Positions 21,230 to 39,561 of a stretch of DNA of 52,163 bases are shown here, in pieces; the first letter of the stretch is position 1; each line of letters begins with the position of its first letter. Both the position numbers and the translations under genes were made by a program. The DNA is taken from positions 1-52,163 of the forward strand of contig CAYNOV010000001.1 in assembly GCA_964398905.1 (NCBI GenBank). The letters are read 5' to 3'. The stretch is from an uncultured Thermoplasmata archaeon. Its GTDB lineage: Archaea; Thermoplasmatota; Thermoplasmata; Halarchaeoplasmatales; Halarchaeoplasmataceae. The notes beneath the pieces were generated by a model. That model saw only the letters and a list, made by a program, of their open reading frames with translations. It had not been told where the DNA came from and did not search any database.

Positions 21230-21327
21230 ACATTCTATAGGACATATTTATTATTTCTTATGTTTTTTGATTAAGAGATCCATCGATTCACTCAAAAAGT
21301 CTATCCCTTTTTTCAATACGTGGGAAA

Positions 21328-21339
21328 CTAATATATAAA
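21328..21339 (+). promoter_or_regulatory. Candidate archaeal TATA box for the cheC-cheD-mcp-cheW-cheW-cheR transcription unit
   Basis: TAATATATAAAC lies about 26-37 nt upstream of the cheC ATG (21365). Such strings are common in AT-rich DNA, so support is weak. Confidence 0.25.
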
Positions 21340-21364
21340 CGGAACAAATTGATTACTCTATATT

Positions 21365-21988
21365 ATGGAAAACAAGCACGACAAACAAACAAAAATAGAA
21401 TTAAATGAGGATAATCTCTTTCTGTTGAGGGAGATCCTAGAAACAGCAGCTAGAAAAGCAGCAGAATCCATCTCTAAGATGTTGGGGACTCCAGTAGAGA
21501 CCGAAATATTGAACATCTATACTAATCCCTTAGAACTTGTTGAGAAAGAATTCGATCAAGAAAATTTGGGGATCATACTTTACTCTGAGCTTAAGGAAGG
21601 TGAAGGAGGGATAACCCTCTTCGTGATGGACGAAGATAGCGCTATAACTCTAGCTCAAAACCTTCTCGGTAAGAAAGACCAGGCTGAAGGCGAACTCGGT
21701 GAACAGGAGAGGAGCGCTCTTAGAGAAGTAGGAAATATACTACTCGGCAATTTTCTAGCAGAAGTAGGAGACTATTTCGATATCCCTATTCTACATACTC
21801 CTCCAGAATTAAAACATGATATGATAGGTGTTTACCTGGAGAATCTATTGACTTATTCCGAAAGTCTAGAGAACAGCGCCATAATTTCGGAAGTCAAGTT
21901 GAAGGCCAAAGGAGTCGGCGTAAAGGGGAGATACATACTCCTGCCCAGTGATGAACTCACAGAAGATTTTATCGATAATCTATTTTGA
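21365..21988 (+). CDS. cheC: CheC-family CheY-P phosphatase
   Basis: The second-half motif fits S-x3-E-x2-N-x22-P exactly: SALREVGNILLGNFLAEVGDYFDIPILHTPP. The first-half site is degenerate: LLREILETAARKAAESISKML. Confidence 0.8.
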   Translation: MENKHDKQTKIELNEDNLFLLREILETAARKAAESISKMLGTPVETEILNIYTNPLELVEKEFDQENLGIILYSELKEGEGGITLFVMDEDSAITLAQNLLGKKDQAEGELGEQERSALREVGNILLGNFLAEVGDYFDIPILHTPPELKHDMIGVYLENLLTYSESLENSAIISEVKLKAKGVGVKGRYILLPSDELTEDFIDNLF

Positions 21989-22058
21989 AGATGAAAAAAG
22001 ATCTGTATCTAAAAGATGGAGAAGGACCCATGATTATCACGATCAAGAGGTAATCCGC

Positions 22059-22514
22059 ATGACTGAAGAGATAGAACTCAGGATCGGAGAAATGGAAATA
22101 ACGAACTCTAAAGGAATCTTGACTGCTAGAGCTCTAGGCTCTTGCGTAGCTGTGGCCATCTATGATAGACAGAATGAAGTGGGCGGTATGGCACATGTTC
22201 TTCTAGGAAATGGTAAAAGAAAAAAAGAAGGAAGATCTTGTATGTATGCGGATGAGGCAGTTGAAAATTTGATCAAGGGTATAATCAGTAAAGGAGGACG
22301 TAGAAGGAATTTGAAAGCTAAGATTGCAGGGGGAGCAAGTATGTTCTCAAGTACTTCTGCGGGTAAGATCGGCAAAAAAAATGTGAAAACTGTCAGAAGA
22401 GAATTAGAGGATAGAAATATCCCTATCGAAGGAGAAGATATCGGGGGAACTCACGCTAGAAATGTCAGATTCAAGGTCGGTTCGATGTCTATGAAAGTGG
22501 AAGTCAAGATTTGA
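22059..22514 (+). CDS. cheD: Chemoreceptor glutamine deamidase CheD
   Basis: ALGSCVAVAIYD (catalytic Cys), GGMAHVLL, AKIAGGASMF, GGTHARNVRF. I chose the ATG at 22059, which is preceded by AAGAGG. The track start at 21948 would overlap cheC by 41 nt. Confidence 0.85.
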   Translation: MTEEIELRIGEMEITNSKGILTARALGSCVAVAIYDRQNEVGGMAHVLLGNGKRKKEGRSCMYADEAVENLIKGIISKGGRRRNLKAKIAGGASMFSSTSAGKIGKKNVKTVRRELEDRNIPIEGEDIGGTHARNVRFKVGSMSMKVEVKI

Positions 22515-22602
22515 ATTTTTCGCCTTTAAAATATTCAGAATGAAAAATTTTCAAAATGTTTAAATAATTCAAATATCTACTAAATATAAGGTTGTTTTAA
22601 TC

Positions 22603-24750
22603 ATGCAATTAAGATTACCCACATTATTAGGGACCATCATAGTGATGTTCGTTTTTATAGGGATCTGGTATATTTTCTTCAGAAAGAGCTTGGTTTTCAA
22701 ATTCGTTTTTCTTTTATTCGCTATCTCTGGAATGTATTATTACATAGGAAACGTCGTAGCGCCTATGGATCAGACCAGTAGACTGCTTATAATGATTCCG
22801 CTGAATGCATTTGTCGCTATTTCCCTGACTTATTACATCAAGAGATACATTGTTGGACCATTAAATGAGTTAAAAGAGAATTCAAAAAAAGTTGCAAAGG
22901 GCGATTTCAGTCAAGAGATAAATGTAGTTTCTAGTAGAGATGAAGTAGGTGAACTTTCCTCTGCCTTTGCTAAGATGAAAGATGACTTCTCTAACAGTAT
23001 TTTAAGGATACAAAAAACATTGAAGTCGCTTTCAAAAGGCAATCTCAACGAAAGAATAGATGTAGAGGATCTAGAGGGCGATTACAAAACGATGGCCATA
23101 ACCATCAATGAGAGTATAGAAGGTGTAGATAGGTCACTGAAGGAGATCAAAAGAGTGATGAATGATTTAGAAAAAGGTGATCTGCAAACCAGGATATCCG
23201 AAGAAGGGCTTGAAGGCGAGTACAAAAAGATGGGAAGATCTGTCAATCAAAGTATCGATGCTGTGGAAAATTCTATGGAAAAGATCAACGAAACGATGAA
23301 AGAAGTAGCTGAAGGAAAACTAGTTACTCGGATAAAAACAGAGGAGCTCGAGGGTGATTACAGAGAGATGGCTGAATCGGTTAACGAGAACATCGGAAAA
23401 GTGAAAGGGGTCATGAAAAATATAAAAGGTGTGATGAATTCCCTCGCATCTGGTGAACTGGACATAGAACTAGATTCTAGTGAAATGCAGGGAGATTATA
23501 AAGTGATGGCCTTATCTGTAAATCAGAGTATAAATACCATGAGCGATTCTTTAGATCAAATAAATAAAGTGATGAGAAACCTTGCTGAGGGAAAATTAGA
23601 TGTTGGGATCGAAACCGAAGAACTTTCTGGAGATTTTGAAGAGATGAGCGTATCGGTCAATGAAGCATTGACTATAATAAAAAATTCTATACAGCAGATC
23701 AAGGAAGTTATGGAGGCACTAGCGAACGGTGATCTGAATAAACAGATAGATGTGGAAGATTTAAACGGAGAGTATCTAGTGATCGGAGAGGCGGTGAATC
23801 AAAGCATCAAAAACACAAGGGAAAATATAAGCAGGTTGAAAGATGTTACCCGAGAGCTTGACGGATCATCAGAAACGTTAGCAGCTTCTGCTGAGGAGTT
23901 GAGAACTACGGCAGAAAACGTGGCTGAGTCCGTTCAAAACATATCTCAAGGCACATCTGAACAATTCAGGATGGCAGAAGATCTAGCAAGTACTGTCGAA
24001 GACTCCGCAGCTAATATGGAAGAAACATCAGCTTCTGCCGAGGATATAGCCGCTTCCGCGGAGGAAGTAGCCGCTCAAACAGACGAAGGTCAGAAGTTCG
24101 CTGAAGAGGCGTCTAATCAGGTCACGGAACTCAAAGAAATATTAGATAGAACCGCAGAAAAAGTTCAGCATCTAGATGAACAATCCAATCAGATAGGAGA
24201 AGTCATAGATACGATTTCAAATATAGCCGAACAAACTAACCTTCTTGCGCTCAATGCCTCTATCGAAGCAGCTAGAGCAGGAAAGCACGGTGAGGGCTTT
24301 GCTGTAGTTGCGGATTCAGTGAGGGAGCTAGCTGAAGAGACCCAAGTTGAGACGGAAAATATCAAGGAGATCATAGAAAGTACGCAGGAGAATGCGAAGG
24401 AAGTGGTCGAAAGTGTGAAGGCTGTTAGTGAAAAGGCCGAAAATGTAGATGGTGTCACCAAAGAGAATTTGAATGCTCTCGATCAGATAAGGGAGGCGAC
24501 AGATTCAGTTTCTAAATCCATACAGGAGATCTCTAGAGCTGTTGACGAGGTATCTGGAAAACTACAAGATTCAGCCACTAAAGTGAAATCAGTCACTGAG
24601 ATAGCCGATGAGACATCTGATCAAGCAGAATCTGTAGCCGCTGCAGCTGAAGAACAAAATGCTTCCGTTGAAGAACTGTCCACGAACGCTCAACAGCTTT
24701 CTACTTTAGCCGACAACTTATCAAGGTTGATAGATAAGTATGATCTCTGA
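22603..24750 (+). CDS. Methyl-accepting chemotaxis protein (transducer) with N-terminal TM bundle, HAMP plus six tandem HAMP-like units, and MCP signalling domain
   Basis: Three hydrophobic segments in aa 8-79 and no sizeable extracellular domain. HAMP: [21 protein letters not shown]...[13 protein letters not shown]. Highly conserved MCP tip: [38 protein letters not shown]. Confidence 0.9.
23020..23847 (+). repeat. Six in-frame tandem 138-nt (46-aa) HAMP-like repeat units inside the MCP gene
   Basis: Units start at aa 140, 186, 232, 278, 324 and 370, a strict 46-aa period. Consensus: M..L..G.L..RI..EELEGDY..MA.SVN.SI......L..I..V. Confidence 0.8.
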
Positions 24751-24844
24751 TCATCTTAAGCCAAAAGGTAAAAGTTTATTAAACCACTGATCGTTTCAGA
24801 GAAATGATGTCACTCGATGTTGAAAGTAGCTTTGAGGTGCTAAT

Positions 24845-25348
24845 ATGGGTATAAAGGAAGATATAGATTCTGATGAATCGATACAGATGGTTGTTTTCAG
24901 GGTAGGTGATGATTATCTTTCCTGCCCTATATCACAAGTTAGAGAGATAATACAACTCGAAGAAGTCACATCCGTACCTTCTACCCCTGATAAGATAAGA
25001 GGCATCATAAACAGGAGAGGAGAGATCATAACCGTCGTCGATCTTCCGAAGATATTAGGTCTTGATATCGAACTAGATGAAGAAGATTCTCAACTCATGA
25101 TCTTGTTTGACGAGCATATCGGTGTGATGGCTTCAGAAGTCACAGAGATACCCACTATTTCAACTGATGAGATAGAACCACCTTCAAAGGCACTAGAGAC
25201 ACCTGTCAATAAAAAATATCTCGAAGGTATAGTAAAACACGAAACTGAACTCATACTGTTGACGGATCTGATATCTATGGTGAAGAATCTCTCAGGCGAA
25301 GGTCTAAAGATGGCTGAAGAATTCAGGGATAAAGAACCTAAAGAATAA
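24845..25348 (+). CDS. cheW: Chemotaxis coupling protein CheW
   Basis: GAGGTG Shine-Dalgarno. MVVFRVGDDYLSCPISQVREII, IRGIINRRGEIITVVDLPKILG. Confidence 0.9.
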   Translation: MGIKEDIDSDESIQMVVFRVGDDYLSCPISQVREIIQLEEVTSVPSTPDKIRGIINRRGEIITVVDLPKILGLDIELDEEDSQLMILFDEHIGVMASEVTEIPTISTDEIEPPSKALETPVNKKYLEGIVKHETELILLTDLISMVKNLSGEGLKMAEEFRDKEPKE

Positions 25349-25406
25349 ATCGACTTTGATCACTCGACGATCAGTTTAATTTTATGCTCTCGTGAGGTGT
25401 TAGATA

Positions 25407-25934
25407 GTGGTTAACGATCTGCATGATAAAGATGATGGACCTAAAAAAGACAGAAATGAAGAGAATAAGAAGCCTCAAAACAAAAAAATGTTCACTGTTT
25501 TTGAGTTGGATAATGAAGAATATGCTATAGAGATAGATATGATGAATGAGATCATCAAAGATGTCAATATATCTAATGTACCTGGATCCTCAAAAAATGT
25601 ATTAGGAGCAACGAACTTGAGAGGCGAGATAATCCCTGTTATCGATCTAAAAAAGATATTAGGTTTAGAGAAAACGGGTGAGGAGGTCCAAAACACGATC
25701 ATCATACATATAGATGAAAAAAAATGGGCCGCGCCCGTAGACAAAATAAAAGATATAGTCTCTCCAAATACGGATCAACTTGTCGACCCCTCTAAAATAA
25801 CCAACCTAGACGGTAGAAGGCTTAGATGGATCATAAGACTTGAAAAAGGTCGTAGTGTTCGAGTGATAAATGCACAAAAGCTCCTGGAAGAGGAGGTCAA
25901 AGACGTAGATATAGAGAGCGAACAGAAAGAATAG
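25407..25934 (+). CDS. cheW: Second CheW-domain protein (K/E-rich N-terminal extension)
   Basis: GTG start 8 nt after GAGGTG. FTVFELDNEEYAIEIDMMNEII, VLGATNLRGEIIPVIDLKKILG. Confidence 0.8.
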   Translation: MVNDLHDKDDGPKKDRNEENKKPQNKKMFTVFELDNEEYAIEIDMMNEIIKDVNISNVPGSSKNVLGATNLRGEIIPVIDLKKILGLEKTGEEVQNTIIIHIDEKKWAAPVDKIKDIVSPNTDQLVDPSKITNLDGRRLRWIIRLEKGRSVRVINAQKLLEEEVKDVDIESEQKE

Positions 25935-25942
25935 GTGGATAT

Positions 25943-26767
25943 ATGGAAGGACTAGAAAACGATACTGATTCCCAGGGGTTTAAGAGGTTAAGAAAAGAGG
26001 TCTCAAGGAGAATAGGGGTAGATTATACGAATTACTCTAAATCACATCTGAGGAGAAGATTTCATGCAAGGATGAGAGTCGTAGAGAAAAGCAAATTCAA
26101 AGACTATCTAAATTACCTGAAACATAATGAAGACGAGATAGCTGAATTGAGAGATCTCCTCACGGTTAACGTTACTAAATTCAAGAGAGACAAAGATGTA
26201 TGGAAACTTATAGAGGATGAAGTCATACCACAGATGATCAAAAAAAAGGAGGAAGACATCTTAAAAAATATCAAAGTATGGTCTGCTGGATGTGCAACCG
26301 GGGAAGAACCTTATTCTCTAGCTATAAGTTACCTAAATAATAACCCTTCTGAGGATCTAAAATTTAAGGTGACGGCCACCGATCTCGACGGCGAAGCACT
26401 GGACTTCGCCAAAAAAGGCACCTACCCAGAAAAATCCGTGAAAAATTTATCTAAAAACGAAAAAAGAAAGTATTTTGACCTAAAAAATGAAAATTGGGTA
26501 TTAGACGATAAGGTCAAAGATCTCGTTGATTTCAAAGAGCTAGATATCTTTGAAACCTCCTTTACAAAAAAATTCGACTTGATCCTATGCAGAAATCTTA
26601 TGATCTATTTTAGCAACGAATCAAAAACTGAGCTGATGATGAGATTAGCAGAAAGTTTGAATAGAGGAGGTTTTTTGATATTGGGCATGGCTGAAAATTT
26701 AAGAGCACCGGCTAGGGATCATTTAGAAACTTACGATCTTAGAAAAAGGATATTTTTCAAGAAGTAG
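25943..26767 (+). CDS. cheR: Chemotaxis protein methyltransferase CheR
   Basis: SAM-binding VWSAGCATGEEPYSLAI and DLILCRNLMIYF. Confidence 0.9.
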   Translation: MEGLENDTDSQGFKRLRKEVSRRIGVDYTNYSKSHLRRRFHARMRVVEKSKFKDYLNYLKHNEDEIAELRDLLTVNVTKFKRDKDVWKLIEDEVIPQMIKKKEEDILKNIKVWSAGCATGEEPYSLAISYLNNNPSEDLKFKVTATDLDGEALDFAKKGTYPEKSVKNLSKNEKRKYFDLKNENWVLDDKVKDLVDFKELDIFETSFTKKFDLILCRNLMIYFSNESKTELMMRLAESLNRGGFLILGMAENLRAPARDHLETYDLRKRIFFKK

Positions 26768-28700
26768 ATCTTATCCAGTGTAGGGTATCTAGTATGATGG
26801 CGATTGTTCCGTCCCCCAGTATCGTTGCGCCCATGAAACCTCCAAGGTCTTGAAGATTTTCGGGGAGTGGTTTTATGACTATCTCTTTTTCGGTGATCAC
26901 CTCATCTATGACGAATCCAGCGGTTTTATCCTCGTTCGAGACTATGACTATTTTGAGTTTTTCATTTTCCTCCTTGATAGAGCCTATAGATTCGTCTTCG
27001 AACTGATGTTTCAAATAGATAAGAGGTAGATATTCTTCTCTCAATCTGATGAAATCATTTCCCTCGATCTTTTCGACTTCTTCAGGAGGTATCTGTGCGG
27101 TCTCAACGATATCTTCCAATGGGATAGCATAACTACCATCTCCAACTTCGATCAAGAATGCCTGAATTATAGCTGCGGAAGGAGGTAAAGTGAGTTTTAT
27201 AGTAGTACCTTCATCTTTCTCCGAACTGATGCTGACCTCTCCACCTAAGGAATCCATGGTCTTTTTGACAACCTCCATCCCTACACCTCTACCCGATATC
27301 TCGGTGACTTCGTCCTTTGTAGAAAAATGGGGATTGAAGATCAACATATATATTCCTTCATCGTCCATATCTTTTGCTTCTTTTTCATCTATAAGACCAT
27401 TTTCTAGCGCTTTTTCTTTTATCTTTGTTTTATCCAGACCTCTTCCATCATCAGACACCTTTATTACCACGTTCTCTTCCTGCTGTTTCGCCGCGACTTT
27501 CAGCCTACCGACGGGAGGTTTTCCTTTCTTCTTCCTCTCTTCTACAGGTTCGATACCATGATCTATGGCGTTCCTAAGCAAATGTACCATCGGGTCTGTG
27601 ATCCTATCTAGGATCGTTCTATCCAATTCTATGTCTTCTCCTTCCATCTCAAATTCTATCCTTTTATCATTCTGTTTTGCCAGATCCCTGACCATCCTTG
27701 GAAACCTTCGGAAAACGCTCTCGACCTCTGTCATCTTTAGCCCTAAAACGGATTCTCTCAACTCGTTCGTTATCCTGTCTATCCTATTGGTAACATTAGA
27801 TAGTCTATCAGAGTCTAATGAACGGGAAAGGTCTTCAAGTGAGCCTTTAGAGATGACGAGTTCACTTATCAGATTCATTACGTGTTCGATCTCCTGTAGA
27901 TCGACTTTCAATTTGTTAGAAGTCTCTATCTTTTTCTTTTTCGTCTTGACCTGTTTTTCTATATCATCTTTCTCTTCTTTTTCTTCATCTAAAAAATCGA
28001 TCCCTTTAACCCTATGTATCTTGATATCCGATCCTGCCGTTTTGTCAAGATCTTCCTCATCTAGGATCTTATCAGTTATGATGTAAAAGTTATACTGATC
28101 CGGATCGGCCTCTTCCGGATCCGGCCAAAAAAGTTCATATTCAAAATCGATCCTTTCTCTGATCTGTACGCCTCTAGCAGAAGGCATCTCTTCATCTTTA
28201 GAGATCTCCACTATACCTAAAGTCAATTCTCTTTCAGGTTCTTGTTCAAATAACTCTCTTACCTTTAAAGGGAGTTCTTGAAAGTTTTGAATACCATCAT
28301 ATTTATCATCGATGACCTCGTCTGACATATGATCAGTATCTCCACCTTCTAATATGGAGTCAAGATCATCTATCAGATCCTTTACATCCAACTCTTGTCC
28401 TTCAGCCAACAACTCAATCGTATCGACACATTGGAATAAGATATCAAAATGTCCCTCATTGATCTTTTCTTCTTCCTTCTTCAATTTATCGAAAAGCTCT
28501 TCCATCCTGTGGCTTATCTTCTGTATCCCCTCGTAACCCATCGTTCCGGCCATACCTTTAAGAGTATGACTCGCTCTGTATATCTCTGCGATGTGTTCAA
28601 GATCATCTGGAGAACTTTCTAAATCTAAAAGATGATCGTTCATCTTGGCGATCTGTTCCTTCGTCTCCTCCTCAAACATCTCTTGGAAGTCTTCACTCAT
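26757..28700 (-). CDS. cheA: Chemotaxis histidine kinase CheA
   Basis: HPt: RASHTLKGMAGTMGY. N box: HLLRNAIDHGIE. G1: VSDDGRGLD. G2: ISGRGVGMEVVKK. C-terminal CheW-like domain. Confidence 0.95.
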   Translation of the reverse strand: MSEDFQEMFEEETKEQIAKMNDHLLDLESSPDDLEHIAEIYRASHTLKGMAGTMGYEGIQKISHRMEELFDKLKKEEEKINEGHFDILFQCVDTIELLAEGQELDVKDLIDDLDSILEGGDTDHMSDEVIDDKYDGIQNFQELPLKVRELFEQEPERELTLGIVEISKDEEMPSARGVQIRERIDFEYELFWPDPEEADPDQYNFYIITDKILDEEDLDKTAGSDIKIHRVKGIDFLDEEKEEKDDIEKQVKTKKKKIETSNKLKVDLQEIEHVMNLISELVISKGSLEDLSRSLDSDRLSNVTNRIDRITNELRESVLGLKMTEVESVFRRFPRMVRDLAKQNDKRIEFEMEGEDIELDRTILDRITDPMVHLLRNAIDHGIEPVEERKKKGKPPVGRLKVAAKQQEENVVIKVSDDGRGLDKTKIKEKALENGLIDEKEAKDMDDEGIYMLIFNPHFSTKDEVTEISGRGVGMEVVKKTMDSLGGEVSISSEKDEGTTIKLTLPPSAAIIQAFLIEVGDGSYAIPLEDIVETAQIPPEEVEKIEGNDFIRLREEYLPLIYLKHQFEDESIGSIKEENEKLKIVIVSNEDKTAGFVIDEVITEKEIVIKPLPENLQDLGGFMGATILGDGTIAIILDTLHWIRSTS

Positions 28701-29766
28701 TTTTTTCCTCCATGAACATATCTAAAACTTTTTTTCCTATATCAGATGGAGAACCTTCAAAATCAGATCCCGCCTTTTCCTTCGCGCTTTTAGGCATCCC
28801 ATAAACGACTGAAGTCTTTTCATCTTGTAAAGCTATCAGACCGTCTTTGTCTCTGATGTGATCCGCTCCTTCAGCACCGTCTTCACCCATACCAGTGAAA
28901 ACTACCCCGAAAACTCGCTCACCGTACTTTTCAGATGCGGATCTAAAAAGATGATCAGCAGCAGGCTTAACTCCGTGTTTTTTGGGTCCACTTTTTAATC
29001 TGATAATTTTTTTCCCACCATCTGAATCGATAAAACCGTGAAGACCAGAAGGGATTATGTAAACCTGATTATTTTTGATGATCTCGCGATCTTTCGCTTC
29101 TTTGATAGGGATATCTAATTTTGAATCAAGTGTAGAGGCAAGATGACCTGTAAAATCTTTAGGCATGTGTTGAACCACTATGATAGGGACATGAAAATTA
29201 GGAGGTAAGCAAGATAAGAACTCATCTAATGCTCTTGTACCCCCTGTTGAAGAAGCGACCGCAATAATCCAATCTTCAGTAACAGACGGTGAATATTTTT
29301 TTCCCTTTGAGATCTGCTTTTCTTCGAAAAATAAACTAGGATCAGTTTTAGCCGCATTAACCAATTTATCTACTATCGCATCACTCTTCTTTCTTATATC
29401 CATAGATAAGGAACCCGATGTCTTAGAGATGAAATCTACGGCACCAGCTTCAAGCGCTTTTACTGACATCTTTCCCGCTTCATCCCCCAGCCCAGATATT
29501 ACGACCATAGGTGTTGGATCTTCAGACATTATATTTTCTACTGCTGTCAGACCATCCATACCTTCCATCTGTATATCGATCAATATAACATCTGGGTCCA
29601 TCTTTTTATTTAATTCTATAGCTTCCCTACCGTCTTTGCCGGTTCCGATGACCTCTACTCGGCCGTCGCTCTCTAATATATCTTTTAAAACGGTAACCAT
29701 GAAATTAGAATCGTCAACAACCACAGCTTTGATCTTTCTCGTGTTTGAAGACATCCACAAAGCCAT
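28693..29766 (-). CDS. cheB: Chemotaxis methylesterase/deamidase CheB (receiver + esterase)
   Basis: Receiver: KAVVVDDSNFM, DVILIDIQMEGMDG. Esterase: VASSTGGTRAL, VVQHMP, FTGMGEDGAEG. The stop overlaps the cheA start by 8 nt. Confidence 0.9.
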   Translation of the reverse strand: MALWMSSNTRKIKAVVVDDSNFMVTVLKDILESDGRVEVIGTGKDGREAIELNKKMDPDVILIDIQMEGMDGLTAVENIMSEDPTPMVVISGLGDEAGKMSVKALEAGAVDFISKTSGSLSMDIRKKSDAIVDKLVNAAKTDPSLFFEEKQISKGKKYSPSVTEDWIIAVASSTGGTRALDEFLSCLPPNFHVPIIVVQHMPKDFTGHLASTLDSKLDIPIKEAKDREIIKNNQVYIIPSGLHGFIDSDGGKKIIRLKSGPKKHGVKPAADHLFRSASEKYGERVFGVVFTGMGEDGAEGADHIRDKDGLIALQDEKTSVVYGMPKSAKEKAGSDFEGSPSDIGKKVLDMFMEEKNE

Positions 29767-29890: not shown

Positions 29891-30097
29891 ATGAGATATA
29901 AGCTATCTATGTCCGACGAAATGTCAGACGATGGTGGTATGATGGATGAAAGAAGCGTAGACGAACTCATCAAAAAGATGCACGAAAAGAAAGGAGAGAC
30001 CATAGATTATCTGCAAAAAACATTCTCTGAAGAAGAACTCGCTAAATTAAATAAGCAGATATCTGGCGAACTCCACGTGAAAAATCAACGATTGTGA
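29891..30097 (+). CDS. Hypothetical small acidic protein
   Basis: 68-aa ORF with an alternative ATG at 29909. Composition matches the proteome and a hairpin follows. No recognisable family and no convincing Shine-Dalgarno. Confidence 0.3.
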   Translation: MRYKLSMSDEMSDDGGMMDERSVDELIKKMHEKKGETIDYLQKTFSEEELAKLNKQISGELHVKNQRL

Positions 30098-30123: not shown

Positions 30124-30166
30124 GTGTTGTTAAATCGAAAACAACACACTCTCTTCTATTATTTTT
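30124..30166 (+). terminator. Possible terminator: 8-bp perfect hairpin followed by a T-rich tract
   Basis: GTGTTGTT (30124..30131), loop AAATCGAA, AACAACAC (30140..30147), then CTCTCTTCTATTATTTTT. Confidence 0.25.
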
Positions 30167-30245: not shown

Positions 30246-30881
30246 TCAGGCTTCTTTATTGATATGGGTTTCAGGCAATTTTAAGAACAAGATGTAGAGG
30301 ATGGTCAAGATTGACAGGATGAGACCGATAGAAACACCCAGTAATAGCGTGTTATCCATCTCTATCCAAAAATCAAATCGAGCTGTCCAGGATACAAAGA
30401 AAGCTATAGTAGCCAATATAAATGCAAGAGCAAACCTCTCCATAGCTTTCCTTCTCCACTGCCCGTTATATTCTCTCATCATATCTTTTGTTTCGCCTTC
30501 CCATATCTTTCTTATTTGGTCTTTTTTCATCATCTCTTGGAGGTAAACTATCGAAGCGTAGAGGAATATCAGCATCCCTACAAATAAAAACACACTAGAT
30601 GAATGAAATCCAATATCCAAATTGGTGAAATAAAATGCGGCCCCCGAAGATATAACGCCTGAACTGACTATGATCCTACTTTTGAAAAAAAATCCAAATG
30701 TTGCGATGCCACCACCTATTATAGAGAGGTGCCATATGATATGTGGATAAGACGCAGCGGCGGTTATCGCTATAATCAGTATTATGGTCAAGAGCGCTTT
30801 GAACGTCGATATGTTTCTATGGGCCTCTACCATGAGCAGATCCGATATGGTTTTCGATCTTTTATCGAGTTCATCATTCAA
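30246..30881 (-). CDS. Polytopic membrane protein of unknown function (last gene of the DUF4129/DUF58 operon)
   Basis: 211 aa with about 5-6 hydrophobic helices. Its start overlaps the DUF58 stop by 4 nt. Confidence 0.6.
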   Translation of the reverse strand: MNDELDKRSKTISDLLMVEAHRNISTFKALLTIILIIAITAAASYPHIIWHLSIIGGGIATFGFFFKSRIIVSSGVISSGAAFYFTNLDIGFHSSSVFLFVGMLIFLYASIVYLQEMMKKDQIRKIWEGETKDMMREYNGQWRRKAMERFALAFILATIAFFVSWTARFDFWIEMDNTLLLGVSIGLILSILTILYILFLKLPETHINKEA

Positions 30882-32158
30882 GTCCTCCTCATCTGATATC
30901 GTCTCACCCCCTCAATAGCTACTTCGAGTGGTTGATGGGTATCCCAATCTATAACAGGACCGTAATCTCTCAAAAATGCCATCCTGTTCTTCCTCTCGAT
31001 CTTTCTGAGTTTTTCAGCGAACTCATCTCCTTTTTTGATGTATTTCTTCTGAAGTTCGACAGGACAAGGTGATATGACGCCGATCTCATATTTCTCTCTG
31101 GCCAAACCAACGATCGCCTCACTTACTTTGTCGCTTGTAAGGGGTGATATGAACAGGAGTAGACATCTATCAGGGAATATATTATCTATGATGAATCGAG
31201 CATGCTCTAATCTCCAATGGCTTCCACCTTCTAAATTCATTAGATTGTCCATGATCTCGTAAAGTTGTTCCTGACCGGATTTAGGATAAGCCCATCTCAC
31301 GAAGTCCCCTATGACTAAAAGTCCGACTCTATTCCTGTCAGATATTATATCTGATGCGAGACTAGTAGCTGCTCTTACAGAATGTTTCAACATGTTATCT
31401 TCGAAAACACCTACATTAGACTCGTAAAAGGCGTCGACGACAATTATCACGTCACCACTCTTCTCGGCTTCGAAAGAATTCGTCTTAGGGTCAAGATATC
31501 TCGCTGTAGCTTTCCAATTGATGTCCCTCATCTCATCTCCTTGTAGATATTCTCTGATAGAGAAAAATTCTGAGCCCACTCCCATCTGAGCTGATTTTAT
31601 GTTACCTAACCATCCTCGGGTATATTTTGGCCTTAGCTTCGTTCTACTGAGATCTTCGATAGGTGGTAGAGCGATCACATTCATATAGTTCTCAAAATTC
31701 CAGTTTTTATAGAACAGACCTATCGGGTCCATATAACGGACTTTCACAGGACCTATACTGTAGTTTTCGGTCTTTAAAAATTTCACTCTATATTCTATCT
31801 CCTTTTCCTCTCCTCCTTGTATGTATATGGAATTATGATTAGAGCCTTCTATGATTTTAACGTTGGTGGGAAGCTCATCCTTAACCTCTAAGAAAACTTC
31901 AGAATCACCATGATTTTTGATGGTCAAGCATACTTTGAATACTTCTCCTTCATAAGTATGGACTTCTTTTTGTTCTCTTTCTATAGTTATGTTCTCATCA
32001 CCTGGTGGAAGATCAAGATAGCCAACGATCATGATAGATAATGATGTTAAGGCAGGAATGAAAAAAAGGTAGTTCATGACCATCATGCCGAGTGTCATGG
32101 TGATGAAGAACAGTACGAAAAGATAACCGAAATTTCTGCTTTTCATCTTCTGTCTCAC
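30878..32158 (-). CDS. DUF58-domain protein (vWA-like fold) with N-terminal TM hairpin and beta-sandwich region
   Basis: DUF58 signature FSIREYLQGDEMRDINWKATARY (about nt 31501..31560). N-terminal TMs: FGYLFVLFFITMTLGMMVMNYLFFIPALTSLSIMIVGYL. Confidence 0.8.
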   Translation of the reverse strand: MRQKMKSRNFGYLFVLFFITMTLGMMVMNYLFFIPALTSLSIMIVGYLDLPPGDENITIEREQKEVHTYEGEVFKVCLTIKNHGDSEVFLEVKDELPTNVKIIEGSNHNSIYIQGGEEKEIEYRVKFLKTENYSIGPVKVRYMDPIGLFYKNWNFENYMNVIALPPIEDLSRTKLRPKYTRGWLGNIKSAQMGVGSEFFSIREYLQGDEMRDINWKATARYLDPKTNSFEAEKSGDVIIVVDAFYESNVGVFEDNMLKHSVRAATSLASDIISDRNRVGLLVIGDFVRWAYPKSGQEQLYEIMDNLMNLEGGSHWRLEHARFIIDNIFPDRCLLLFISPLTSDKVSEAIVGLAREKYEIGVISPCPVELQKKYIKKGDEFAEKLRKIERKNRMAFLRDYGPVIDWDTHQPLEVAIEGVRRYQMRRT

Positions 32159-32769
32159 CTCTCCTCATCAACGTAGTGTATCTTTTCTAGCTCTGAAATA
32201 GCGGAGCTGATCTTTTCTTCAAACCCTAATTCCTCGAGCTCAGACCTAGATGTTTCTTCATCGGAAAACAAGTCGCTTTCATCCACACCATCGGGTTTTT
32301 TCATATCATTGAGATCCCTAGCATTTTTGATATAATCCATCAATTTTTCATTATCTATCTTCTCACTAAAACTATCTGGATCTTCGTCCAATATCTTGAT
32401 CTCTTTCTCAGAAAGATTGTATTCATTCTTTAGTGTGTGAAAAACCTGATCTTTTATCCTGCCCTCAAGGATAGCCTGCTTTACTTTCTGTCCTTTTCTT
32501 GCTCCTTTCATCTTTTTGATATCATCGTTTAGAGGAAGCCTGGAGAACTCTTCCTTTTTTTCAGCGCTTTTCCAAAGAGAAGGGGACTCTGTCTTGTCTA
32601 TCACTTTTTCTGTCAAAAGCCAAAGAGGGATTATTATGAAAACTATGACCATACCAGGTCTGAAACCTCTTGCAAACAAGGTCAAAAGGATTATCGTCGT
32701 TATAGCCGCAACTTTCATGAAAAGAACGTAACTGGTTCCTTTCCTCGCAGTTGCGGATCCTTCAGGCAT
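32155..32769 (-). CDS. Membrane-anchored acidic protein of unknown function
   Basis: 204 aa. Two N-terminal TM helices followed by a K/E/D-rich soluble tail. It overlaps both neighbours (8 nt and 4 nt). Confidence 0.6.
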   Translation of the reverse strand: MPEGSATARKGTSYVLFMKVAAITTIILLTLFARGFRPGMVIVFIIIPLWLLTEKVIDKTESPSLWKSAEKKEEFSRLPLNDDIKKMKGARKGQKVKQAILEGRIKDQVFHTLKNEYNLSEKEIKILDEDPDSFSEKIDNEKLMDYIKNARDLNDMKKPDGVDESDLFSDEETSRSELEELGFEEKISSAISELEKIHYVDEER

Positions 32770-33643
32770 GTTCTACTACCTCCAATTCATCTTTGATCTG
32801 CTCAAAATTCTTTATCGCTCTCTTACGTTCTTCCTCTTTCAATGGATGATCGCTGTACTTCGCCTCTTCGAACAATCTGGTCATCTCATCTATTGTACTT
32901 GCAGTCAATGAAAGTTTAGCGACAGCCATCTTCTCTAGTTCTCTCGGAGTAAAAGATATTTCCTGATCTAAACCCTCTCTTTCAAGGATTATCAACATCT
33001 TTTGATAATTGCGTATAATGACATCTCTTACATCTTCTCCTTCATGGAGTTCAGTTATGGCTTTGTCAGCGGTCGAAGATATGTCTTCTTCAGCAGTGAA
33101 ACTATCTTCAGAAAATTTTCTGTATCTCAAGAAGAAAAAGAAAACGATGAGGATCGATGAAAGAAATATCAAGATGCCTATACTAGACCCAAAAGAAGGA
33201 TCAACATGTTGGGATCCCTCTCCAAAAATGAATTCTGTGATTGAAGGAAATTCAAAGTCAGGTAGGATACCTCCAAATCGTGATAATAGATGAAGGGATT
33301 TCGGTATGATATGGTCTGGAAAGTATATGACAGATATGACCGCTAAAAAAGCACCACCTCTGATACTCTTTCTTTTCCATCCCTCATCTGAGAATAAAAC
33401 CCATCCTCCAACCCCTAATATGATCATCGAAAAAAAGGCATATCCGAGATATCCCTCTAAAAAATAGGGTATTTCTACTGGAGAACCACCCGCACTTCCT
33501 TCTGCTCTCCCCGGTTCACCTTCGATAAATTCATCCTGCATACCAAAATAGGCTCCACCTAGATTTCCTATAGCCCAAGCTAAGATCATCAGGATGATAA
33601 CACTTACCAGGAATATCTCCTTTCTATCGAACCGGGAGTCCAT
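32762..33643 (-). CDS. DUF4129-like membrane protein (first gene of the operon)
   Basis: Several TM helices, then a C-terminal helical domain: VIIRNYQKMLIILEREGLDQEISFTPRELEKMAV...MTRLFEEAKYSDHPLKEEE. This resembles the DUF4129 pattern (TPxE ... arYs.h). Confidence 0.65.
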   Translation of the reverse strand: MDSRFDRKEIFLVSVIILMILAWAIGNLGGAYFGMQDEFIEGEPGRAEGSAGGSPVEIPYFLEGYLGYAFFSMIILGVGGWVLFSDEGWKRKSIRGGAFLAVISVIYFPDHIIPKSLHLLSRFGGILPDFEFPSITEFIFGEGSQHVDPSFGSSIGILIFLSSILIVFFFFLRYRKFSEDSFTAEEDISSTADKAITELHEGEDVRDVIIRNYQKMLIILEREGLDQEISFTPRELEKMAVAKLSLTASTIDEMTRLFEEAKYSDHPLKEEERKRAIKNFEQIKDELEVVEHA

Positions 33644-33743
33644 GATTTATAGCTCTTCAAATTCAGTCACTAATTTAAATATTGTGCTAAGGTGAATTCA
33701 ATCAATACCTAAACTTTTTATCCTCATATGATATTTCATTATT

Positions 33744-34037
33744 ATGGGAGAAAAAGAACTTGTCAGCGGAGAAAGGAATGAAAGAAAAGTTAAAGTTTTC
33801 ACGATCAGCACCTGTGGATGGTGTAAAAAAGTCAAAAACTTTCTGGAAGAAAACGATGTAGAGTATGAATACATCGATATAGACCAAGTCGAAGGGGAAG
33901 AAAAGAAAAAAGTCAGAGAGGAACTAAAAAAATACAACTCAAAGATGAGCTGTCCTACTTTGGTCATAGATGAGGGTGAAGAGATAATCATCGGCTTCAA
34001 GAAAGACGAGATAAGGGAGGCCCTGTGTGATGACTGA
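33744..34037 (+). CDS. Glutaredoxin-like small thiol-disulfide oxidoreductase
   Basis: VKVFTISTCGWCKKVKNFLEENDVEYEYIDID (CxxC), then CPTLVIDEGEEIIIGF. Confidence 0.8.
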   Translation: MGEKELVSGERNERKVKVFTISTCGWCKKVKNFLEENDVEYEYIDIDQVEGEEKKKVREELKKYNSKMSCPTLVIDEGEEIIIGFKKDEIREALCDD

Positions 34038-35182: not shown

Positions 35183-35812
35183 ATGTGTGAGAGCAAAGTA
35201 GGTGATCAAGATAAAGAGAAAAAATTGAAAAGAGCTTTCTTTCGCAGAAGTGCGGATGATGTAGCTAAGGATCTACTAGGAAAAAATCTTGTCAGGAAGA
35301 GCCTTTCAGGCAAGACTGTTGGTAAAATAGTCGAAACCGAGGCATATCTGGGAAAAGAAGACCCAGCTTCTCACACATATAAAGGGAAAAGGACAGAAAG
35401 GAATGAAATATTGTTCGGTCCGCCTGGACACGCCTATGTTTATCTGATCTACGGCATGTACCATTGTTTCAATATCATAACCGGAAAAGAGGGAAAATCA
35501 GAAGGTGTGTTTATCAGGGCATTAGAGCCTGTTCAGGGTACAAAATTGATGAAAGAAAGAAGAGGTAAGGTGCATAAAAGAGAACTCACCAACGGTCCAG
35601 GTAAATTGTGTATGGCTATGGACATCGACAAGGGTCTCGATGGAGAAGACATCACCGGAGACAAGTTGTACGTTACTAGAAAAGTAAATCAAAAATCTTT
35701 CAAGATCATCGAAGCTAAAAGAGTGAATATCGACTATGCAGGCGAAGCGAAGGAATGGAAACTCCGTTTTCTGATAGAAAACAATCCCTTCGTCAGTGAG
35801 CCTCCAGGATGA
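35183..35812 (+). CDS. mpg: DNA-3-methyladenine glycosylase (AAG/Mpg family)
   Basis: FFRRSADDVAKDLLGKNLV, GKIVETEAYLGKEDPASHTYKGKRTERNEILFGPPGHAYVYLIYGMYHCFNI. Confidence 0.85.
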   Translation: MCESKVGDQDKEKKLKRAFFRRSADDVAKDLLGKNLVRKSLSGKTVGKIVETEAYLGKEDPASHTYKGKRTERNEILFGPPGHAYVYLIYGMYHCFNIITGKEGKSEGVFIRALEPVQGTKLMKERRGKVHKRELTNGPGKLCMAMDIDKGLDGEDITGDKLYVTRKVNQKSFKIIEAKRVNIDYAGEAKEWKLRFLIENNPFVSEPPG

Positions 35813-35814
35813 TC

Positions 35815-37857
35815 CTATTTTTCTGGCAGTTCCTTTTTCTCAAGCATCTCTATAAAATCGTCCTCGTCTAGTATAGTGGTTCCTTCTTCTCTTGCCTGAT
35901 CTAATTTCGAGCCGGGATCTTCTCCAACGACCAGATAATCCGTTACACCACTGACCGAAGAGGTGACCCTTCCTCCATGTTCCTGTATCTTTTCTTTAGC
36001 TTCATCTCTAGTGAATTTATCTAAGGCTCCTGTCAGAACAAATTTTCTATCTTCTAAGAACTTATCAACTTCTTTTCTCTCGACTTCCATCGTGATCCCG
36101 TTCTTCCTCAATCTCTCTATCATCCTTTGATTCTGTTCGTCCTCAAAGAAAGAGACGATACTCTCAGCTATTTTTGGTCCGATCTCGTCTATCTCTTGAA
36201 GCTCTTCTTGATCTGCTTCCATGATCTCTTGCATCGAGTCGTAATGTTCTGTGAGAACATTGGCAACGTGATCACCAACGTATTTGATGCCTAGTCCGTA
36301 TATGACCCTATCTAAACTCCGCTCTTTGCTTTCTTTTATCTCTTTCAAAAGATTCCTTGCCGACTTTTGAGCCATCCGTTCGATACTGGTCAGTTGTATC
36401 TTACCGATCTCATACAGATCTGGTATGGTTTTTACGACGTTCTTCTCGACCAGTTTATTGAGTACCTTCGGACCCAAACCCTCTATGTCCATCGCGTTTC
36501 TAATACCCCAATGTTCCAGTCTCTGCTTTATCTGAGCGGGGCATTGAGCATTTACACATCTTCTAGCTACTTCGTCTCCGATCCTTTTCGCTTTACTACC
36601 ACATACTGGACATTCTTCCGGAAGTTCAAAGACACCTTCACTCTTCTTCTCAGTGACCTTGACTATCTGGGGTATTATCTCTCCCGCTTTTTCTACTAGG
36701 ACTTTATCTCCTACATTGACGTTTTTCCTTTCGAGTTCATCCTCATTGTGCAGTGATGCTCTTTCAACGACCGTTCCTGAAAGTTGAACGGGTTCGAGTA
36801 TCGCGATAGGAGTGAGTTTACCGGTCCTTCCGACCTGAACTTCTATATCTTTTATCGTGCTGGTTTTCCTCATTGCAGGATATTTGTATGCTATAGCCCA
36901 CCTGGGATGTTTAGAGGTCGCTCCGAGGGTATCATGATGATCTAGTTTATTGACCTTTACGACCATGCCATCTATCTCGTAATTCAAGTCCTCTTTCTTT
37001 TCCTTCCACTGATCGATATATTCTATAACTTCATCGATCCCTTTCTTTTTAGCGATGTTTCTGTTGACTTTTAGACCGGCCTTTTCTATCTCCTTCAAAC
37101 ACTCCCAGTGAGTTTCGAATTCTCCCTCTTCGTTATAGCTGAGCGTGTAAACAAATATATCTAAAGGCCTCTTCGCTACGACTTTAGGATCTTTATTCCT
37201 GACTGTACCTGCCGCTGCGTTCCTGGGATTGGCAAACGGATCTTTTCCCTCGTCCAATCTTCTTTCATTCATCTGTTCGAATTCGTCTCTCGGCATGTAG
37301 ACTTCGCCGCGGAATTCAGCTGTCTCTAGTAAAGTATCATCGGTGAGTTTTAGAGGTATCGTATGGATCGTTTTGAGATTAGGAGTGATATCTTCACCTC
37401 TAGTACCATCTCCTCTGGTAGAGCCTCTCTCGAAAGTCTTGTTTTCGTAATAAAGAGCTACACCTAAACCGTCGATCTTCGGTTCGATTATGTACTCGAT
37501 ATCTTCATTTTCTTTACCTAAACCCTCTCTCACTCTTCTGTCAAAATCTTTAAGTTCACCATGATTGTAGGTATTATCTAGACTCAACATCGGTGATAAA
37601 TGGTCAACGGTCTCGAACTCATCTATCTCTGAGGTCATCACCCTTTGCGTAGGAGAATCTTCAGTGATGAGATCAGGAAATCTTTGTTCTATAGCTTCGA
37701 GCTCTTTGACCAGCATATCGTATTCATGGTCGCTTATCTCTGGATCGTTCTCGATATAGTATTTTCTGTCGTGGTATCTTATCTCTTTCCTGAGGGTTTC
37801 TGCTCTATTTTCAGCCTCTTCCTTGTTTTCTGGTATGGTAAAGTCTTCATCACTCAT
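35815..37857 (-). CDS. ligA: NAD+-dependent DNA ligase
   Basis: Adenylation motif EPKIDGLGVAL. Zn finger CPVCGSKAKRIGDEVARRCVNAQCPAQ. HhH region. C-terminal BRCT: FVLTGALDKFTRDEAKEKIQEHGGRVTSSVSGVTDYLVVGEDPGSK. Confidence 0.95.
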   Translation of the reverse strand: MSDEDFTIPENKEEAENRAETLRKEIRYHDRKYYIENDPEISDHEYDMLVKELEAIEQRFPDLITEDSPTQRVMTSEIDEFETVDHLSPMLSLDNTYNHGELKDFDRRVREGLGKENEDIEYIIEPKIDGLGVALYYENKTFERGSTRGDGTRGEDITPNLKTIHTIPLKLTDDTLLETAEFRGEVYMPRDEFEQMNERRLDEGKDPFANPRNAAAGTVRNKDPKVVAKRPLDIFVYTLSYNEEGEFETHWECLKEIEKAGLKVNRNIAKKKGIDEVIEYIDQWKEKKEDLNYEIDGMVVKVNKLDHHDTLGATSKHPRWAIAYKYPAMRKTSTIKDIEVQVGRTGKLTPIAILEPVQLSGTVVERASLHNEDELERKNVNVGDKVLVEKAGEIIPQIVKVTEKKSEGVFELPEECPVCGSKAKRIGDEVARRCVNAQCPAQIKQRLEHWGIRNAMDIEGLGPKVLNKLVEKNVVKTIPDLYEIGKIQLTSIERMAQKSARNLLKEIKESKERSLDRVIYGLGIKYVGDHVANVLTEHYDSMQEIMEADQEELQEIDEIGPKIAESIVSFFEDEQNQRMIERLRKNGITMEVERKEVDKFLEDRKFVLTGALDKFTRDEAKEKIQEHGGRVTSSVSGVTDYLVVGEDPGSKLDQAREEGTTILDEDDFIEMLEKKELPEK

Positions 37858-37860
37858 GAT

Positions 37861-39561
37861 TTACCCTCCTAATACATCCAATAACTGGTCATAAGAACAT
37901 GTGTTCACGATATCATCTTTTTTCAGCCAGGCACGACGCGCGATCGCAACACCATATTTCATGAAATCTAGATGTGTCAGACCGTGAGCATCGGTCCCAA
38001 GTGAAATCGTCACACCTCTTTCCATCGCCTCTCGGGCATTCAGCGAGTCGAGATCGAGTCTCTGTGGAGAAGCATTTATCTCAAGTATCACATCATTTTC
38101 TAAGGCAGCATCGATCAATTCGTTTATATCGACTTCGTAGCCCTCTCTCTCTCCTATCTTCCTTCCGGTCGGATGGGCAAATATATCTATAAGACCGGTT
38201 TCGAACGCCTTAACTATCCTTTCTGTTTGCTCTTTTTCTTCCATATTGAAGTTTGAATGTATCGCACCTAGAACGATATCAAGGTCTTTAAGAGTTGCTT
38301 CATCCATATCGAGTGAACCATCTTTTTTGATATCAACTTCTATTCCTGATAAAATATTTATATTCAGATCATGTTGAGCTTCCTGGATCTCGATTTCCCT
38401 CTGATATATCTCCTCACTGGTCAGACCATCGGCAACGCTCAATCCCTGAGAATGATCTGTTAAAGCTAGATACTCATAACCGATCCTCTGTGCGTCTTTT
38501 GCCATCTCAAAAACTGTATTTTGTCCATCACTCCAATCTGTATGTGACTGAAGATCACCTTTGATATCTTCAAATTTTACAAGTTCTGGTAGTTCACCTT
38601 TTTGGGCGGCTTCGATCTCACCTCTGTTTTCTCTCATCTCAGGAGGGATCCAATCCATACCTAATCTTTCATAGATCTCCTTTTCCGTTTCACCTGCTAT
38701 TTTTTCATCAGTCTCCTTATCAAAAAGGCCGTATTCGTTCAATTTGTAACCCTTATCTATAGCTATCTGTCTCAGTGGAACGTTGTGTTCTTTAGCACCT
38801 GTAAAGTACTGTAACGCAGAACCGAAACTTTCCTCATCAACGACTCTGAGATCGGCCTGTATACCTCCGACCAATCTGACACTAGTTTTTGTTTCACCCT
38901 TTACTAGGACTTCTTCCACTTCTTCATGATCAACGAATTTGTTCATCAACTTTTCAGAGTCGCCAGTAGCTAATATATCGATATCTCCGATAGTTTCTTT
39001 CCACCTTCTCAAGCTCCCGGCCTTTTCGATCCTCACAGCTTCATCTTCAAGGTATTCTATGATGTCCTCTGAAACAGGTATGACTTCATTAAGAAGATGT
39101 CGTCCAGAGATCTCTTCAAGCATCTCTATTCCATCGATTATCTTCTCTTCAGTTTTCTGTCCGAAACCCTTTATATCTCTTATTTTTTGTTCCTCAGCTT
39201 TCCTTTTCAAAGAGTCAAGATCATTAACACCCAGCTCATCATGAAGTTTTTTAGCACTTTTTGGACCGATGCCAGGTACTTTCATGACCTCAACTAGACC
39301 TTCTGGTAATTCCTCATGGAGTTCATCAAGATATTCCAAAGAACCGGTTTCGATTATCTCCTTTATCTTCTTCTCCATCGCATCACCGACACCCTCTATA
39401 TCTTTGATAGAGTCTTCCTCATAATAATCCGAAATATCTTTCTTCATCGATTCTATCTTTCTCGCGGCCTTTCGGTAAGCACGAGGTTTGAAATCGACCC
39501 CTTTCAACTCTAGAAGATCAGCGATCTCGTTGAACATCTGAGAAATCTTTTTATTGATCAT
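37861..39561 (-). CDS. polX: Family X DNA polymerase with C-terminal PHP domain
   Basis: N-terminal HhH: FKPRAYRKAA, PGIGPKSAKKL. Catalytic GSLRRWKETIGDIDILATGD. PHP motifs: SHTDWSDG, LALTDHS, AHP, LGTDAH. It lies 3 nt upstream of ligA on the same strand. Confidence 0.9.
   Translation of the reverse strand: MINKKISQMFNEIADLLELKGVDFKPRAYRKAARKIESMKKDISDYYEEDSIKDIEGVGDAMEKKIKEIIETGSLEYLDELHEELPEGLVEVMKVPGIGPKSAKKLHDELGVNDLDSLKRKAEEQKIRDIKGFGQKTEEKIIDGIEMLEEISGRHLLNEVIPVSEDIIEYLEDEAVRIEKAGSLRRWKETIGDIDILATGDSEKLMNKFVDHEEVEEVLVKGETKTSVRLVGGIQADLRVVDEESFGSALQYFTGAKEHNVPLRQIAIDKGYKLNEYGLFDKETDEKIAGETEKEIYERLGMDWIPPEMRENRGEIEAAQKGELPELVKFEDIKGDLQSHTDWSDGQNTVFEMAKDAQRIGYEYLALTDHSQGLSVADGLTSEEIYQREIEIQEAQHDLNINILSGIEVDIKKDGSLDMDEATLKDLDIVLGAIHSNFNMEEKEQTERIVKAFETGLIDIFAHPTGRKIGEREGYEVDINELIDAALENDVILEINASPQRLDLDSLNAREAMERGVTISLGTDAHGLTHLDFMKYGVAIARRAWLKKDDIVNTCSYDQLLDVLGG

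Follow-up and report, generated by a model that had tools for sequence, protein, structure and literature searches.

A DUF4129/DUF58 membrane gene cluster of a halophilic Thermoplasmata archaeon and the unlinking of its MoxR ATPase gene

The DNA examined here, 52,163 nucleotides of contig CAYNOV010000001.1 (assembly GCA_964398905.1; hereafter the window) from an uncultured Thermoplasmata archaeon, contains at 30246..33643 four consecutive minus-strand genes, designated A, B, C and D. The locus is a rearranged member of the known but poorly understood class of MoxR/DUF58/DUF4129 modules; it neither represents a system of a new type nor reveals what such modules do. The genes and their recognizable domains are the following:

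32762..33643, minus strand: gene A, DUF4129 membrane protein of 293 amino acids (open reading frame (ORF) and Pfam)
32810..33007, minus strand: DUF4129 domain of A, residues 213-278 (Pfam)
32155..32769, minus strand: gene B, transmembrane (TM) hairpin plus tail, 204 amino acids (ORF, homologues)
30878..32158, minus strand: gene C, DUF58 protein, 426 amino acids from a GTG start (ORF and Pfam)
31133..31558, minus strand: DUF58 domain of C, residues 201-342 (PF01882)
30246..30881, minus strand: gene D, polytopic membrane protein of 211 amino acids (ORF, alignment)

An initial annotation, made from the sequence alone, had all four ORFs overlapping their neighbours. Two of these overlaps stood: the A/B junction is a true 8-nt overlap (ATGCCTGA), the ATG start of B being preceded by GGAGGT, and the C/D junction is a 4-nt overlap in which D begins at a TTG codon, chosen likewise by public gene calls. 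The 4-nt B/C overlap exists only with the GTG start for C. In public gene calls of the identical sequence C begins at an ATG 12 nt further on, giving a protein of 422 residues and an 8-nt gap between B and C, and the corresponding methionine, Met5, is kept in at least 90% of the aligned homologues. Because Met5 is conserved and the public calls use the ATG at 32146, this last overlap is likely not real and the 422-residue product from position 32146 is the more likely form of C. The genes are tightly packed whichever start holds.

The DUF4129 and DUF58 assignments, both part of the initial annotation, were upheld. Protein A matches DUF4129 (PF13559) with 39.2 bits against a gathering cut-off of 24.8, and C matches DUF58 with 54.9 bits against 23.4; precomputed annotation agrees in both cases. 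Hydropathy predicts three or four TM helices in A (approximately residues 10-28, 66-84, possibly 93-112, and 154-172), and Pfam detects no transglutaminase core. An alignment of 15 homologues, including copies from MoxR-containing operons, revealed a variable N-terminal half and a highly conserved C-terminal half, the residues invariant in all 15 being T191, Y213, E221, G224, T232, P233, F258, E259, Y263, S264 and H266. Protein C consists of an N-terminal TM hairpin, a beta-rich (Ig-like) region at approximately 57-140 and the DUF58 domain, with the motif REYLQGDEMRDINWKATAR at residues 202-220; a BatD-like match was below threshold (15.4 bits, cut-off 24.1). The DxSxS motif of MIDAS (the adhesion site that depends on a metal ion) is missing from every DUF58 protein compared, MoxR-adjacent ones included, so its absence is not informative, and its loss was rejected as a sign of decay in C. 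No VWA or TPR match was found in A-D, a TPR protein at 19039..20838 being unrelated and 9 kb off, and profile searches of the four proteins against PDB sequences returned nothing significant.

Neither B nor D belongs to a characterized family as judged by Pfam and NCBIfam, as the initial annotation had supposed. Protein B possesses an N-terminal TM hairpin (residues 15-58, approximately) after which come a helical charged tail, an acidic linker and, at the C-terminus, a helix. Its 30 close homologues, all from halophilic Thermoplasmata, share 42 invariant positions, and an exhaustive search of 1.84 billion representative proteins yielded only 48 representative clusters of the family; the wider B profile was built from 47 sequences of that search. 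In protein D about six TM helices are predicted, with a K/R-rich loop (residues 115-145) in the middle. This protein evolves rapidly (17-40% identity in the alignment), with length and TM pattern kept and G56, G63, G75, I123, G129 and P203 invariant. No Pfam match to D was found at E<=1, SpoIIM included, nor any NCBIfam or PDB match, and a word-index search with D alone found only D itself, because the protein diverges too fast. Nevertheless D is present at every related locus that reaches far enough, hidden Markov models (HMMs) detecting it in L010 (E 1e-60) and L012 (E 2e-56).

A scan of a genome collection with C produced 13 related loci, all in hypersaline or soda-lake Thermoplasmata metagenome-assembled genomes (MAGs), among the source records of which is the name Candidatus Natronoplasma. 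The gene neighbourhood set out in the initial annotation proved to be conserved in these relatives: the order A-B-C-D is kept in 13/13, to each contig's reach, which is conservation far beyond chance. Identity to the window proteins is 66-83% for C, 42-64% for A, 35-66% for B and about 30-43% for D. At least four flanking contexts occur among the loci carrying A-B-C-D. The window's context of che genes and ferredoxin-thioredoxin reductase (FTR) recurs in L001, L002, L007, L012 and L013, a LarA/MFS context is found in L009 and L010, and L003, L005 and L006 have other neighbours; the cluster thus moves as a unit. Locus L010 (JBKHKA010000007.1) is labelled Candidatus Aenigmatarchaeota; its genes and their order closely match those of the Thermoplasmata locus L009, a likeness which makes it probable that the binning or the taxonomic assignment is mistaken.

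Genes B and C are immediate neighbours, with no MoxR gene between them, both in the window and at each of the 13 related loci. In 12 of the 13 no AAA_3 domain occurs at all; the exception is L006, a 249-kb contig on which MoxR (AAA_3, 210 bits) lies 1.5 kb upstream of A on the opposite strand, separated from it by one MFS gene. Judged by its gene order, this arrangement is an intermediate state. The genome concerned, CAYWJQ01, possesses two copies of A-B-C-D. The C of the copy near MoxR (L006) is 79% identical to that of the window, and the C of the second copy, which lies in the che locus (L012), is 66% identical and basal in the C tree.

The MoxR of L006 was used to scan metagenome contigs, and the matches were annotated with HMMs of the window clade. 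Two soda-lake sediment contigs, L028 and L053, carry A-A'-B-MoxR-C-D on one strand, and a MAG contig, L103 (GCA_048620975.1), carries A-B-MoxR-C-D, likewise on one strand. In these three the HMM E-values were 1e-30 to 1e-47 for A, 1e-15 to 8e-19 for B, 1e-132 to 1e-139 for C and 1e-10 to 1e-13 for D, the latter being the gene after DUF58. The tandem DUF4129 duplicate (A-A') heads the operons at L028:3106-4958 and L053:7635-9345 and has no counterpart in the window. About 20 more distant archaeal-type metagenome contigs repeat the layout of a DUF4129 protein (about 300 residues), a small protein that combines a helical tail with one or two TM helices (158-216 residues), MoxR, a DUF58 protein (about 423 residues) and a polytopic protein (164-208 residues). 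These operons resemble the window cluster in the four non-ATPase families, their order, strand, tight packing, sizes and TM patterns, and differ in that MoxR stands between B and C (L028, L053 and L103; distantly, L030-L061). By this comparison of families and gene order the ancestral archaeal operon was evidently A(DUF4129)-B-MoxR-C(DUF58)-D. As far as could be found, such archaeal operons are undescribed in the literature; a preprint on the prediction of interactions between DUFs contains no mention of DUF58, MoxR, DUF4129 or DUF4350.

The relationship of B to the small protein of the distant operons was addressed with hhalign. The B profile matched B-position proteins of distant MoxR operons with 98.1% (E 1.4e-13), 97.3%, 92% and 82.7%; for the B-position groups of L057 and L042 type the values were 0.4% and 1.4%. 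On the strength of these profile matches the B family is homologous to the protein encoded between the DUF4129 gene and MoxR in several distant archaeal-type operons. Two other assignments of B were considered. Its identification as a headless DUF4350, that is, a TM helix with a cytoplasmic tail, was rejected at the sequence level: B has no Pfam match to DUF4350 (PF14258), and hhalign against DUF4350 proteins of L014, L043, L052 and others, which do match PF14258, gave 0.3% for full-length proteins and 0.5% for the C-terminal tails. A DUF7269 identity was not established either, all matches falling below the gathering threshold of 29.1 bits (15.3 bits for the B-position protein of L037; 3 of the 47 B-family members, best E 0.014). 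No sequence link was found between D and the polytopic proteins following DUF58 in the distant operons, all hhalign values being 0.5% or less; beyond L028, L053 and L103, D has in common with them only position, size and TM pattern.

These results bear on the proposal of the initial annotation that two unrecognizable membrane proteins fill the cluster in place of the ATPase. That B and D lie outside the curated families was correct; since both are regular members of A-B-MoxR-C-D operons, they are not lineage oddities which have replaced MoxR.

Within the window itself the ATPase is indeed absent from the cluster and its flanks, as had been noted: when its large ORFs, over the full 52 kb, were compared with Pfam, no AAA_3/MoxR, vWA or transglutaminase domain was detected. 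The claim that the cluster lacks a MoxR partner is true of the locus and not of the organism. In GCA_019594395.1 the window's exact B protein is encoded together with A and C on contig 10 (JAFDTQ010000010.1), and a lone MoxR (P0045) is encoded on contig 3 (JAFDTQ010000003.1) of the same ENA assembly, the two contigs having two sequencing runs in common. Four further MAGs agree: JAGXLF01 (cluster in L013, MoxR in L096), JBKHFH01 (L007 and L098), JAGXLI01 (C in L011, MoxR in L095) and CAYXPD01 (cluster in L004, MoxR in L120). Cluster and lone MoxR thus lie on separate contigs in 5/5 MAGs for which the MoxR contig was looked up, and their presence in the same MAGs demonstrates that the ATPase was relocated and not lost. 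Beside the lone gene lie genes for a GyrI-like protein and for aldehyde or homoserine dehydrogenases; in the flanks of more than 20 such loci no DUF58 or vWA neighbour was found.

The MoxR proteins of the window clade are 90-94% identical among themselves and 79-81% identical to the operon-embedded copies. By neighbour-joining the lone MoxRs group as a single clade that nests among the operon-embedded copies, and the C proteins without an adjacent MoxR form one clade, sister to the MoxR-adjacent C proteins. Such congruent trees are the pattern expected from a single unlinking on the stem of the clade. Protein C retains the motifs common to its MoxR-adjacent homologues, which argues against decay after the split. 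Gene order and trees together show that, on the stem of the window's soda-lake clade, MoxR lost its place between B and C and was kept as a lone gene elsewhere.

With regard to function, we favour on balance the view that A-B-C-D constitutes the membrane part of a MoxR/DUF58/DUF4129 module and that the unlinked MoxR docks via C to remodel a membrane client; the cluster most likely still works with MoxR, supplied in trans. Hydropathy and positive-inside counts place most of the soluble mass of A-D on the cytoplasmic side, namely the C-terminal DUF4129 domain of A, the 145-residue tail of B, approximately 375 residues of C and the basic loop of D. The initial annotation had pictured the whole complex as embedded in the membrane; all four proteins are membrane-anchored, as it stated, and most of their mass is predicted to be cytoplasmic. 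The docking proposal was drawn from this cytoplasmic mass and from the vWA recruitment known in the MoxR systems that have been studied. vWA proteins are adaptors of MoxR (PMC12067865, PMC11834572), and in RavA-ViaA and NorQ-NorD an AAA+ hexamer is brought to a membrane-associated client by an adaptor with a vWA fold (PMC12067865; Kahle et al. 2023 via PMC11834572).

In the mechanism proposed, the four proteins would be anchored by N-terminal or polytopic helices with their conserved soluble parts facing the cytoplasm. On the membrane's inner face a platform could then be made up of A's DUF4129 domain, the helical tail of B, C's Ig-like and DUF58 (vWA-like) regions and D's basic loop. A cytoplasmic MoxR hexamer, encoded by the unlinked gene, would dock on this platform through C, as modelled on the MoxR-vWA pairing of RavA-ViaA and NorQ-NorD, and ATP-driven remodelling might then mature, insert or assemble a client in the membrane or envelope. 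Interaction, topology and chaperone-type action are what we infer; the comparisons described above show the ancestry, the unlinking and the joint occurrence in the same genomes.

Several observations weigh against this proposal. The topology comes from simple hydropathy and charge counts only. AlphaFold2 models were too poor for a fold search, that of B (22 homologues) being all-helical with a pLDDT of 58 and a pTM of 0.31, and that of C, made from a single sequence, having a pLDDT of 37. As the DUF58 proteins here are without the DxSxS MIDAS motif, the analogy with vWA adaptors is inexact; RavA-ViaA and NorQ-NorD moreover represent other MoxR subfamilies, with true MIDAS-containing vWA adaptors and known clients. 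The genomes are MAG bins and not closed genomes, so that contigs may be misassigned, though five bins agree. Finally, some lineages have broken the operon up. Contig L102 (CAYMXS010000007.1), one of the four contigs (with L028, L053 and L103) for which B HMM matches of 1e-15 to 5e-18 were obtained, carries A-B-MoxR and then an acetyltransferase, neither C nor D being present within 6 kb. Contig L104 (PWKY01000088.1) has a lone MoxR at the locus where L103 holds the full operon, the two having in common the downstream 98-aa gene (Rpp14/Pop5-like in L103) and the radical SAM, hexapeptide-repeat and PIN genes. These break-ups indicate that the parts are separable and may not all be obligate partners.

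Some weight attaches to an ATPase-independent complex, in which A-B-C-D would work alone, for instance in a structural or scaffolding role, and the lone MoxR would serve other clients. Throughout the clade cluster and MoxR are unlinked, the four genes have passed together, without MoxR, through at least four contexts, and the L102 and L104 lineages retain only some of the parts. Against it, an orthologous MoxR was present in 5/5 MAGs looked up that carry the cluster and had no other DUF58 or vWA neighbour, the motifs of C typical of MoxR-adjacent homologues have not been lost, and in L006 a mere 1.5 kb separates MoxR from the cluster. We regard this explanation as improbable. Similarly, the modules may be separable, either because A-B-C-D is independent of the ATPase or because one free MoxR serves several platforms in trans, as with the two copies of CAYWJQ01; this is a minority possibility which, if true, would provide a natural dissection of which MoxR/DUF58 functions need the ATPase. 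An artefact of annotation, in which some of the ORFs are not real genes, would chiefly concern D, given its TTG start, lack of a family match and 17-40% identity to homologues. It is scarcely credible, in view of the occurrence of D at the same position in every locus reaching it with length, TM pattern and invariant Gly and Pro residues kept, of its detection by HMM after DUF58 in L028, L053 and L103, and of the 30 close homologues and 42 invariant positions of B.

Two further explanations rest on context. The cluster adjoins cheB and cheA in the window and in L001, L002, L007, L012 and L013, and with a full che set next to it could be regarded as an accessory module of chemotaxis or motility. 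In L003, L005, L006, L009 and L010, however, the neighbours are unrelated (LarA, MFS, an ABC permease, a succinyl-CoA ligase-like gene), the MoxR-containing operons of ancestral type in L028, L053 and L103 are not beside che genes, and in the window a convergent small gene separates the cluster from cheB; a role in chemotaxis is accordingly very unlikely. Equally hard to sustain is a conflict or defence system of the MoxR-vWA type, or the cargo of a mobile element. A role in conflict has been proposed for ternary MoxR-vWA systems (cited in PMC12067865), and the cluster does have several genomic contexts, with two copies in a single genome (L006, L012). Yet a search of PADLOC-DB 2.0 gave no match for A, B, C, D or the clade MoxR at E<=0.01, the four proteins contain no effector-like, nuclease or protease domain, the G+C content is uniform, the flanking genes are of the housekeeping kind, and close strains do not vary in its presence. 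Neither an integrase nor a transposase was seen beside the cluster, the sole transposon-type gene being a TnpB about 1.7 kb upstream in L012, in another intergenic slot.

The cluster is flanked, as the initial annotation had it, by cheB on one side and glutaredoxin on the other, and the intergenic region on the glutaredoxin side is divergent:

28693..29766: cheB, flank of the cluster
33644..33743, strand not applicable: divergent intergenic region between A and glutaredoxin, 100 nt (sequence reading)
33744..34037: glutaredoxin, flank of the cluster

Beyond D lie cheB-cheA and a full che set, and beyond A are glutaredoxin, a ferredoxin-thioredoxin-reductase/rubredoxin fusion, methylpurine glycosylase (MPG), LigA and PolX. 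The G+C content of the cluster is uniform with its surroundings. The divergent region contains a TATA-like A/T-rich element, TTTAAAT, at approximately 33672-33678, about 30 nt upstream of the ATG of A, which is possibly an archaeal promoter with a very short leader. Scans for sigma-70 promoters and intrinsic terminators produced nothing above background, such models being poorly suited to archaea, and folding of the region downstream of D was likewise not above background. In the convergent gap between D and a 68-aa ORF there is a hairpin with an 8-bp stem (GTGTTGTT...AACAACAC) at 30124..30147, the fold of this region being no better than that of shuffled sequence (z = -0.57). Rfam and tRNA scans of the window were empty. 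The 68-aa acidic ORF (29891..30097, plus strand), located between D and cheB and convergent with D, has no Pfam match and is 75-94% identical in L001, L002 and L007, a higher conservation than that of D; it probably represents a genuine gene for a small protein.

Elsewhere in the window the chemotaxis set at 20858..29766 is complete, with cheY, cheC/X, cheD, a multi-HAMP methyl-accepting chemotaxis protein, two cheW genes, cheR, cheA and cheB. At 35183..39561 a DNA-repair trio specifies the methylpurine glycosylase, a bacterial-type NAD-dependent LigA (adenylation domain 332 bits) and a PHP-domain PolX; the synteny of the trio extends to L007, L012 and L013. In L012 a TnpB/Cas12f-like gene (OrfB_IS605 and TNB domain; L012:5493-6767) stands between MPG and FTR, a position which is empty in the window. 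The product of 5322..9371 (minus strand) is a 1349-aa class-I aminoacyl-tRNA synthetase with tRNA-synt_1, Anticodon_1 and DUF5915 domains, a C-terminal helix-hairpin-helix region and DUF835. The fusion of DUF835 to a synthetase looks unusual; a second DUF835, 6 kb off at 15375..16973 (plus strand), occurs in a fusion with a coiled coil and a bactofilin domain.

Clusters of this general type are known from bacteria. TgpA comprises DUF3488, a transglutaminase core and DUF4129, and is part of a MoxR-DUF58-TgpA operon in Pseudomonas. The window resembles this operon in having a DUF58 protein and a polytopic membrane protein ending in DUF4129, and bacterial-type loci of the same layout were found in L088 and L091. 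In the bacterial-type loci the B position is occupied by a DUF4350 protein and the D position by a TM+DUF4129 or TgpA-like protein. The PFNA cluster of bifidobacteria contains a kinase, FN3, MoxR, DUF58 and transglutaminase (PMC12067865, PMC8430577). From both of these the window differs in that A is without a transglutaminase core, the DUF4129 gene is first and not last, and the ATPase lies outside the operon.

The Rv3689-Rv3695 / MAB_0386c-0392c cluster (membrane protein, DUF4350, MoxR2, DUF58, SpoIIM-like, RDD) is co-regulated in M. chelonae (PMC8191103). It has the same core order of a membrane protein, a second membrane protein, MoxR, DUF58 and one or more polytopic proteins. The gene upstream of DUF4350 in that cluster presumably carries DUF4129. 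It is distinguished from the window cluster by the B position, where a DUF4350 protein of about 430 residues with a large extracytoplasmic domain takes the place of the 204-aa hairpin-plus-tail protein, by the presence of MoxR inside the operon, and by its SpoIIM-like protein, D having no SpoIIM match. DUF58 is the hallmark neighbour of MRP-type MoxR (PMC12067865, PMC11834572), and the proteins are membrane-associated (PMC11834572, PMC5700661). The Bat/MRP-type operons of Bacteroidetes, Francisella and spirochaetes (MoxR, DUF58, the BatA/BatB vWA proteins, TPR, BatD) likewise have a DUF58 partner, whereas the window lacks the classical vWA, TPR and BatD proteins; a Flavobacteriales locus, L014, carries DUF4350-like, MoxR and DUF58 genes.

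Among prokaryotic gene clusters without a known mechanism, MoxR/DUF58 modules rank with the most widespread, and a 2025 review states that neither what DUF58 does nor how it relates to MoxR has been clarified (PMC12067865). The locus described here defines an archaeal five-gene form, DUF4129-B-MoxR-DUF58-D, two components of which belong to no curated family. The halophilic Thermoplasmata have broken this operon in various ways, into A-B-C-D plus a lone MoxR, A-B-MoxR alone, or a lone MoxR at the old locus, and these break-ups are natural genetic combinations with which to ask how its parts depend on one another.

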